Part shown: piece by piece, positions 51,575 to 51,819 of the stretch
Layout of the letters: each line of letters starts with the position of its first letter
Position numbering within the stretch: the first letter of the stretch is position 1
From: Escherichia phage EP75
Direction: 5' to 3' (one strand)
Length of the DNA: 64,000 bases
Sequence record: MG748547
Notes under the pieces: generated by a model
Told to the model about the DNA's origin: nothing
What the model saw: only the letters and a program-made list of their open reading frames with translations
Database searches by the model: none
Translations under genes and position numbers: made by a program

Positions 51575-51591
51575 TCGGGAATCGAACCCGA
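51575..51591 (-). ncRNA. Isolated canonical T-arm (element A); closing helix not found
   Basis: Minus strand TCGGG-TTCGATT-CCCGA. No acceptor partner for GAGTGCG within 100 nt. Confidence 0.25.
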
Positions 51592-51757
51592 AATCGTCAG
51601 GACGCTGAAAGCTATTTGCATTTCACTTGCATATCCTGCGACTTTCTTAACTTCCTTAACCCCAGATTGTTATGAAGTCGGCATGCACACCTTCTTCATC
51701 TTCAGGAAGTCACACTCATAATTTGATTTGCGATGATGAACCCATTTCATCTGGGGT

Positions 51758-51819
51758 TGGGTGAGTGGGAGTTGAACCCACAACGCTTGGCTCGCTTTCC
51801 CTACCATTCAGGCCACCCA
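51758..51819 (-). ncRNA. Truncated tRNA-like element B (62 nt)
   Basis: Minus strand TGGGTGG-(31 nt)-GTGGG-TTCAACT-CCCAC-TCACCCA. 7-bp acceptor including a G-U. Interior too short for D plus anticodon arms. Confidence 0.3.

Follow-up and report, generated by a model that had tools for sequence, protein, structure and literature searches.

Two structured RNAs with tRNA-like modules at the distal end of the tRNA operon of a Kuttervirus phage

Do isolated T arms at the end of a phage transfer RNA (tRNA) locus mark the places where tRNAs have been lost, or do they belong to genes of another kind? This question is raised by a stretch of 64,000 nucleotides from Escherichia phage EP75 (sequence record MG748547), referred to here as the window, in which a first-pass annotation made from the letters alone had described two "orphan" T-arm elements: Element A, a perfect T arm without a partner for its 3' acceptor strand, and Element B, a 62-nt element closed by an acceptor-like stem. 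The source genome belongs to the genus Kuttervirus (Ackermannviridae, Vi01-like), its locus is 97.6% identical to that of Salmonella phage Se-J, and 320 phage records match the locus. Comparative analysis indicates that neither T arm is an orphan, A being the 3' end of a complete 150-nt tRNA-shaped RNA and B an internal domain of a 191-nt multi-helix RNA. Both elements are tRNA-derived modules that are not tRNAs, and the explanation we favor, with a probability of roughly 0.7, is that they are structured RNA genes that are handled like tRNAs.

The T arm of Element A, UCGGG-UUCGAUU-CCCGA, lies where it had been placed, reading from 51591 to 51575 on the minus strand. Its 3' acceptor strand does have a partner, as CGCACUC pairs with GAGUGUG, 140 nt upstream, at seven of seven positions with one G-U pair. 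In one sequence such a match is non-significant, with about 0.3 partners expected per T arm within 300 nt by our own arithmetic, and we regard the closure as established because the acceptor stem covaries, not because of pairing in a single sequence. For 14 distinct sequences from Kuttervirus, Agtrevirus and Klebsiella Taipeivirus, RNAalifold recovered a consensus of 39 pairs, 12 of which show compensatory changes. Within these pairs 99.3% of alignment cells are paired, compared with 44-47% after the 3' partners are slid by 1-3 columns, and the observed covariation was reached by none of 500 column shuffles. In the acceptor stem itself, pair 4 changes from U-A to C-G in 6 of the 14 sequences, and pairs 2 and 6 vary through G-U only. 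The minimum free energy (MFE) fold of the single sequence uses the same closure (z = -3.15).

In terms of layout, the RNA consists of a 7-bp acceptor-like stem, a single A, a first arm (arm I), an A/U-rich linker, a second arm (arm II), a UU linker, the canonical T arm, the 3' acceptor strand and an invariant UCCC. Arm I combines an invariant outer helix (CUUCCU/AGGAAG) and a conserved internal loop (AAUC.GG.GUU) with a covarying inner hairpin that carries the loop GUGCAU. Arm II shows compensatory changes in seven of its eight outer pairs and is capped by an invariant hairpin, GAAAUGCAAAUAGCUUUC. The 3' terminal CUCUCCC is invariant in all 14 phage sequences as well as in a homolog found on a plasmid.

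Element A is conserved in 233 phage records, which form three identity bands between 75 and 100% (Kuttervirus, Agtrevirus and Klebsiella Taipeivirus). It is annotated in no record; the labels "tRNA-OTHER" in phages Det7 and ST-W77 and "tRNA-Gln" in Menlow refer to the neighboring gene, and a label "tRNA-Leu" accompanies the match in AR2819. Outside phage records, the 3' 64 nt of A are matched by 27 records of non-mobilizable Klebsiella plasmids of ~44-116 kb (mostly ~108-116 kb), which are taken to be phage-plasmids. The one plasmid examined, Klebsiella pneumoniae NZ_CP032196.1, encodes a full-length A homolog that scores 65 bits with our model of A (R1). Its acceptor stem reads GGGUGAU/GUCACUC, the stem of the GUGCAU hairpin has changed in a compensatory manner, and the invariant motifs GUGAAAUGCAAAUAGC and CUCUCCCA are kept; these pairs were read from the covariance model alignment, MAFFT having shifted the 5' acceptor strand of the homolog by one column.

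For Element B, the acceptor stem UGGGUGG (51819-51813)/UCACCCA (51764-51758) with its one G-U pair, the T arm GUGGG-UUCAACU-CCCAC and an interior of 31 nt that includes UGAAUGGUAGGG were all found on the minus strand as first described. The description of the 62-nt element thus stands, while the notion that it is complete does not, as it is embedded in a 191-nt RNA whose ends are paired. The conserved unit comprises the 62-nt element together with ~95 nt upstream and ~30 nt downstream of it. We aligned seven sequences, from the window, EspM4VN, SKML-39, Ag3, Gloob, Taipeivirus IME250 (73%) and the Schitoviridae phage Kc283 (74%), and obtained a nested consensus of 58 pairs, 20 of them compensatory. 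When the four pairs of a pseudoknot (helix 3) are added to it by hand, the structure contains 62 pairs in 12 helices, of which 21 pairs show compensatory changes. Paired cells amount to 98.8%, compared with 34-43% when partners are slid, and 0 of 500 shuffles reach the observed value. Both the MFE and the centroid structure of the window sequence alone reproduce this fold (z = -2.21), and the 62-nt piece on its own is unremarkable (z = -0.82).

The two ends of the B RNA are brought together by helix P1, in which four of nine pairs carry compensatory (double) changes in Kc283 and IME250. The loops of hairpins P2 and P5 form the kissing-loop pseudoknot, CCCA (51895-51892) with UGGG (51744-51741), and at its third pair the C-G of five sequences is replaced by U-A in Kc283 and by U-G in IME250. 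The P3 domain encloses two hairpins with conserved purine-rich loops, GGCGGAAGA and GACGGCAAA, the second of which has compensatory changes in five of its seven pairs. The tRNA-like domain itself is composed of a 7-8-bp acceptor-like helix, which is extended outward by helix 7 (UGG, 51825-51823, with CCA, 51754-51752), a 4-bp D-like arm with a GG loop, and the T arm. In the position of the anticodon arm there is a near-invariant segment of 18-20 nt, GAAAGCGAGCCAAGCGUU (GAAAGC.AGCCA.AGCGUU), which has two indel sites only. It is noticeable that the stems of this domain covary while the segment replacing the anticodon arm stays constant. One motif, GGAAAUCC, had suggested that B might be an RNase P RNA; this identity was rejected, with no Rfam hit and no global similarity.

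The B RNA occurs in about 30 records, from Kuttervirus, Agtrevirus, Taipeivirus IME250 and the N4-like Schitoviridae phage Kc283. In the last of these, a phage of Kosakonia, a complete copy (4501-4681 of the examined stretch) closes a cluster of three tRNAs, directly after tRNA-Gln. Kc283 is unrelated to Ackermannviridae, which implies horizontal transfer of the RNA gene, and movement between that family and an N4-like phage speaks for a function that is portable. Transitive BLAST starting with the B copies of Kc283 and IME250 recovered no further families, and scans of IMG/VR returned known relatives only, plus one odd tRNA-like RNA (L013). Pattern scans with TGGTARGGAAAGC..AGCCA gave 109 metagenome and 68 genome loci, among which the model of B found no true homolog, and these matches are therefore attributed to chance. 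We conclude that B represents a previously undescribed class of structured RNA with mobility across phage families.

Some GenBank records read this part of the locus as small protein-coding genes. Hypothetical proteins are annotated over B in Ag3 (orf00223, which also runs into A), SKML-39 (G178_gp200) and Se-J (NC_049497), and ORFs (open reading frames) of 45-93 codons overlap the region in the window. No frame is open across the homologs, however: the B copy of Kc283 has at least two stops in every frame, most genomes have stops in every sense frame of A, and substitutions track base pairing, not codons. A coding origin of the observed conservation is therefore hardly credible. A small ORF inside A, AUGAAGAAGGUGUGCAUGCCGACUUCAUAA, was rejected as a candidate, since Ag3 has a stop there and the frame is thus not conserved.

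Both elements have retained a canonical T arm together with an acceptor-like stem of 7 bp, and the locus is mosaic, as would be expected if they were decaying tRNA pseudogenes or, as the first-pass annotation had allowed, what deletions have left of tRNAs still intact in sister phages. The relatives indicate otherwise. Among 50,697 phage records there is no full-length tRNA version of either A or B, and every occurrence has the same short or expanded form, A being always expanded in the same way. BLAST of the 68-nt B element against these records yielded nothing besides this short element itself and fragments of unrelated tRNAs that cover the T arm, and all 30 full-length matches share the 62-65-nt form. 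The comparative and covariance analysis that had been proposed for the elements shows that both retain their folds across genera with compensatory changes; stems covary while loops remain invariant, in B even across phage families, and the extra sequence that sets the RNAs apart from tRNAs is likewise folded and conserved. In relatives that lack B (S118, ST-W77, Det7 and Mutine), its slot is occupied by tRNA-Ser(GCU) and a pseudo-tRNA, and these are unrelated to B in sequence. In SKML-39 tRNA-Ser, the pseudo-tRNA, B and A follow each other in a row, which implies that B and the pseudo-tRNA are separate cassettes. We consider the remnant explanation highly implausible, and A and B very probably are real structured RNA genes.

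How decay looks at this locus can be seen in Dickeya phage LIMEstone1 (Limestonevirus), which does contain a genuine remnant. At 4488-4607 of the examined stretch, an S118-type T-arm element provides the 5' part and, from a junction inside the T loop (GGUUCAAC) onward, the sequence continues as the 3' part of B, including P5 and the P1 strand; the T stem of this chimera no longer pairs. The chimera indicates recombination between cassettes at T loops. Such recombination, together with the homing endonuclease genes of the HNH and GIY-YIG types that are present in this locus in relatives and in T4, could be taken to mean that the elements are features of the DNA: sites scarred or targeted by homing endonucleases, hotspots of recombination, or attachment (att) sites copied from the 3' halves of tRNAs. 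This we regard as very unlikely. Many conserved G-U pairs in A and B pair only on the minus-strand transcript and are thus strand-specific, and the compensatory changes preserve RNA helices rather than sequence. In addition, the interval 51560-51920 of the window has no match at E<0.01 in 5,426 complete E. coli genomes, so that A and B are not copies of host tRNA ends or att sites, and the phages are virulent.

The surroundings of the two elements are those of an RNA operon. There is no ORF of more than 114 codons within ~51435-55130, and the longest on the minus strand has 93 codons. ARAGORN and Rfam at its curated (gathering) thresholds recognize three tRNA genes only, for Tyr, Asn and Met, all on the minus strand. 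Nine copies of the T-loop motif GGTTCRANNCC are present in the 64-kb window, always on the minus strand and always between 51578 and 54425; since about 1.0 copy is expected and none of 100 shuffles reached nine, its frequency is beyond chance. The impression that T-arm elements extend over the whole locus was thereby borne out, with tRNA-derived modules that are not tRNAs found throughout the ORF-poor region of ~3.7 kb. An intrinsic terminator follows Element A by ~60 nt, and a terminator is annotated at the equivalent site in phages Mutine, Menlow and May. We infer that A and B share a minus-strand transcript with the tRNAs, which would begin upstream of tRNA-Met and run to this terminator. 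The spacing is tight: one base separates the CCA end of tRNA-Tyr from the start of the B RNA, which stops 8 nt before Element A, and in Ag3, SKML-39 and Kc283 B likewise starts 2 nt after the CCA of the upstream tRNA.

Table 1. Coordinates of the two RNAs, their parts and the neighboring features of the operon within the window.
Feature	Position	Strand	Basis or remarks
Element A RNA, 150 nt, T4 RNA C-like, non-coding	51568-51717	minus	bounded by the outermost bases of the acceptor-like stem; RNAalifold
A, 5' acceptor strand GAGUGUG	51711-51717	minus	pairs with 51574-51568
A, arm I (D-arm position), ~59 nt	51651-51709	minus	helices 2-4 and invariant columns of the alignment
A, arm II (anticodon-arm position), ~48 nt	51594-51641	minus	helix 5; 8-bp helix with bulged A
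A, T arm UCGGG-UUCGAUU-CCCGA	51575-51591	minus	helix 7; 2 of 5 pairs covary
A, 3' acceptor strand CGCACUC (51574-51568) and tail UCCCA (51567-51563)	51563-51574	minus	alignment
Element B RNA, 191 nt, structured	51726-51916	minus	7-sequence consensus, 12 helices
B, P1 5' strand AUUUGCGAU	51908-51916	minus	pairs with 51734-51726 (AUCGCAAAU); 9-bp closing helix
B, P2 hairpin UCGCG-GAAAUCCCAGA-CGCGA	51885-51905	minus	helix 2; 2 of 5 pairs compensatory
B, P3 domain, outer helix GGAGG/CCUCC	51826-51882	minus	helices 4-6
B, tRNA-like domain (Element B as first described)	51758-51819	minus	helices 8, 9 and 11
B, T arm GUGGG-UUCAACU-CCCAC	51765-51781	minus	part of the tRNA-like domain
B, P5 hairpin GAUGAA-AUGGG-UUCAUC (51751-51735) and P1 3' strand (51734-51726)	51726-51751	minus	helix 12; 3 of 6 pairs compensatory
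tRNA-Tyr	51918-52001	minus	ARAGORN and Rfam
tRNA-Asn	52397-52472	minus	ARAGORN and Rfam
tRNA-Met	52658-52733	minus	ARAGORN and Rfam
Intrinsic terminator of the RNA operon	51482-51504	minus	10-bp stem, then U-rich run; ~60 nt past Element A

In order to relate the two RNAs to known families, we compared them with the 4,227 families of Rfam, and neither was matched beyond a local hit to the T arm. Searches of the window, the locus and both elements, at gathering thresholds and at E<10, returned only the three tRNAs, T-arm fragments and spurious microRNA (miRNA) and small nucleolar RNA matches. The elements share operon, strand, T loop and acceptor geometry with canonical phage tRNAs and annotated pseudo-tRNAs, but tRNA detection excludes them. 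Both are rejected by ARAGORN and by RF00005, the Rfam model for tRNA (threshold 29 bits); the best score of B in the Rfam tRNA clan is 17.4 bits for tRNA-Sec, compared with a threshold of 47, and A has no match in this clan except for its T arm. The annotated pseudo-tRNA ("tRNA-OTHER" of Det7 and ST-W77) is situated directly upstream of A, in the slot of B, in relatives without B.

These results bear on the idea that the elements are unusual aminoacylated tRNAs, B as an armless mini-tRNA and A as a tRNA with giant insertions, which would serve translation or amino-acid donation. An acceptor stem, a UUCRA T loop and a D-like GG loop are present, the invariant UCCC of A needs only trimming and the addition of one A to give UCCA, and the conserved loop of B contains CCA, the anticodon of Trp. 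The rejection by both tRNA-detection methods, the absence of an anticodon stem-loop of normal geometry, with a 5-bp stem and a 7-nt loop, and of G3-U70 or another obvious identity set, and the location of the acceptor-like helix of B inside a larger junction with no free 3' end make this explanation quite unlikely.

The tRNA-like domain of transfer-messenger RNA (tmRNA) resembles A and B in that it joins an acceptor stem and T arm to a reduced D region and lacks an anticodon arm; the T arms of A and B match the Rfam tmRNA model locally with 14.8 and 13.6 bits. Unlike tmRNA, both have G3-C70 in place of G3-U70 and neither contains a tag ORF; as each closes on itself, they are not two halves of a tmRNA. 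The bacterial Y RNA YrlA and MALAT1/mascRNA are examples of longer RNAs that contain tRNA-like modules, and such modules are substrates of RNase P. B is similar to YrlA in that its ends pair and a tRNA-like module with a T arm and a GG loop lies inside, and to mascRNA in the size of its 62-nt domain and its stunted anticodon arm. It differs from both in joining the rest of the RNA at the acceptor end and not at the anticodon end. RNAs of the YrlA kind are characterized by a terminal helix with conserved Ro binding, a tRNA-like module inside and linkage to an rsr (Ro) gene; in B, P1 covaries freely and shows no conserved Ro-binding sequence. B resembles RNAs that embed tRNA-like modules (YrlA, mascRNA and the tmRNA domain), while it does not clearly satisfy the definition of any of them.

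For Element A a closer counterpart is found in phage T4, whose RNA C is a stable small RNA present during infection and matured by RNase P, according to the T4 literature of the 1970s. RNA C and RNA D of T4 have been known since that time, and their function is still unknown (PMC3014915, PMC9697503). The gene rnaC (RNA C, species 1) is the last RNA gene of the T4 tRNA cluster, after rnaD and tRNA-Arg, just as A is the last before the terminator in the window, although the A homolog on the Klebsiella plasmid is not terminal. The two RNAs are of similar size (139 nt for RNA C, 150 nt for A), and each is closed by an acceptor-like stem of 7 bp with covariation inside its own family, for rnaC among four homologs from four T4-like genera for which we derived a consensus fold. 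They share the order of a 1-nt linker, a long arm, a 9-10-nt A/U-rich linker, a second arm, a 2-nt linker and a canonical T arm; both are without variable loop and encoded CCA, and the AAAUUAU leader is identical. Ackermannviridae and Straboviridae, the family of T4, both belong to the order Pantevenvirales. In contrast, the arms of rnaC and A have no recognizable sequence similarity, the T4 acceptor stem contains two U-U mismatches where that of A is fully paired, and the T4 tail is UACAA where A has the invariant UCCC.

Model searches point in the same direction with limited force. The best match of the A model outside its own family is T4 rnaC (22.8 bits, E ~2e-4, such E-values being rough), and a model of the rnaC family (R3), searched against ~200 kb of loci containing dozens of tRNAs, matched no tRNA; its matches were six A homologs (15.5-22.8 bits) and a single odd tRNA-like RNA of metagenomic origin. 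Weighing against a common origin, ordinary tRNAs reach up to 21.2 bits with the A model (tRNA-Asn), the copies of A of the Ag3 type and those from S118 and the plasmid escape the rnaC model, and a similarity as weak as this could be convergence on a tRNA scaffold. We conclude that A is RNA C-like in architecture and position, with homology to T4 RNA C and its absence being evenly balanced. No similarity was found between B and T4 RNA D, which is without a T arm, and a search of the T4 region with the B model was empty. With a structural equivalent in another phage family and in Klebsiella phage-plasmids, RNA C becomes open to comparison: covariation and invariant loops in A separate the scaffold from likely functional surfaces, and A is available for knock-outs in genetically tractable phages, e.g. 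Det7 and Kuttervirus phages of the CBA120 type.

If A and B are structured RNA genes handled like tRNAs, their acceptor/T-arm modules would allow the host tRNA-maturation enzymes to excise them from a polycistronic precursor and would also confer metabolic stability. Cleavage by RNase P would occur 5' of the acceptor-like stem and cleavage by RNase E within the AAAUU spacers, with the ends trimmed by 3' exonucleases. For A, maturation of the RNase P type with 3' trimming is somewhat favored, because of its tRNA-like stack of acceptor stem and T arm, the U at position -1 in most sequences and the invariant CC two bases past the stem. The invariant loops and arms would then carry the actual function; stems that covary freely while loops remain invariant suggest specific recognition, and the likeliest activity would be mimicry of tRNA toward a host or phage factor that binds tRNA.

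Several points weigh against this explanation. The acceptor-like helix of B is continued by helix 7, with 4 additional bp in IME250, and has no free ends, and hence it may not be a substrate of RNase P; if it were cleaved, the outer fragments could still be held together by P1 and the kissing loops. Element A is absent from Limestonevirus and IME250, and Element B from most Kuttervirus genomes, so that neither is essential. The searchable literature holds no expression, end-mapping or processing data for Ackermannviridae, and no paper describing the A or B RNAs was found among those accessible, which included a review of the family from 2024.

The same dispensability in some genera is consistent with the main rival explanation, according to which A and B act in cis as punctuation of the operon, guiding RNase P and RNase E and protecting the tRNAs against 3' exonucleases, and would do nothing further after release. 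No other structure separates A from the terminator, rnaC is likewise the final RNA gene of the T4 cluster, and B begins 2 nt past the CCA of the upstream tRNA in the window as well as in Ag3, SKML-39 and Kc283. Simple punctuation, however, has no need of ~40-60 conserved pairs, invariant loops and a pseudoknot. It also does not account for the transfer of B to an N4-like phage and, independently, of A to Klebsiella plasmids, nor for the B copy of IME250, which adjoins neither a terminator nor A. We therefore treat a role purely in cis as unlikely, if the strongest of the alternatives.

As for what RNAs handled like tRNAs might do, the tRNAs encoded next to A and B provide some context. tRNA-Tyr and tRNA-Asn are targets of anticodon nucleases. 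A phage tRNA-Tyr has also been reported to counter retron defence (bioRxiv 10.1101/2023.03.15.532788). That A and B function as tRNA mimics or decoys is a guess on our part and a doubtful one. A broader proposal, which we consider improbable at present, is that the locus is a toolkit of tRNA mimics that would act jointly on host translation or tRNA surveillance, together with a tmRNA-like tag RNA encoded 2.4 kb upstream. Under this proposal A would be an RNA of the RNA C type and B a new pseudoknotted class, both serving in trans as decoys or adaptors for a tRNA-binding factor. Candidate targets would be an anticodon-nuclease defence system, a modification or repair enzyme, or the trans-translation apparatus. 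If true, it would give T4 RNA C a function.

The tag RNA mentioned above was noticed during inspection of the rest of the locus. A conserved RNA at ~54345-54085 contains a frame of the tmRNA tag type (54215-54183, minus strand), which reads GCU AAU GAU UCC GAA GUU CUG AUG GCG GCG UAA UAG and encodes ANDSEVLMAA followed by two stops. The tag stays in frame across genera, with the variants ANDDVVLMAA, ANDNTFLAVA and ANDNAYLAVA. The Rfam model tmRNA_permuted aligns weakly to this region (21.5 bits, compared with a threshold of 47), without the tRNA-like part; ARAGORN reports no tmRNA in the window or in 11 relatives, and no G3-U70 acceptor was found for the tag region. This RNA may be an unrecognized phage tmRNA, or the coding piece of a tmRNA without a tRNA-like domain of its own. 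On plasmid NZ_CP032196.1 an ORF-free stretch of ~1.2 kb (2620-3860) contains the tag region (2657-2800), the A homolog about 110 nt further on (2911-3060), and then more T-arm elements and tRNAs.

The tag region is flanked on the minus strand by two mini tRNA-like elements of ~66 nt (54469-54404 and 54058-53992), which are built like the tRNA-like domain of B, with a 7-8-bp acceptor, a T arm and no anticodon arm. Further minus-strand T arms are located at 53889-53873 and 53811-53795, the latter closed by a 14-bp stem, CUUUGAGGACAUUG/CAGUGUCCUCAAAG. A third long tRNA-shaped candidate, Element C (52390-52264, minus strand), directly follows tRNA-Asn and has the acceptor GUCGGGU/ACCCGAC and the T arm UGGGG-UUUGAAU-CCCCC (52287-52271). 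It is conserved in LIMEstone1, where a G-C pair of the T stem is replaced by A-U, and scores 14.9 bits with the A model; with little diversity among its copies, the fold is a candidate only. The spacer between Element C and tRNA-Tyr (52262-52002, minus strand) is also module-like and is closed by long-range helices, GGGUGU...ACACCC and a 13-bp helix CUACCGCCGCGUG...CACGCGGCGGUAG. The entire locus may consist of structured RNAs in a row, each closing on itself.

More than 300 deposited genomes have this 3-4-kb region either unannotated or mislabelled as hypothetical proteins, and phages of this group are widely proposed for therapy and biocontrol. Two long, near-perfect inverted repeats with arms of ~20 bp (AACUUUGAUGGCUCUAG... 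and AAAUCGAAGUUCUCUGGG...) were also observed in the locus, at 53128-53221 and 53595-53727, and they are the cause of spurious matches to plant and animal miRNA precursors in Rfam.

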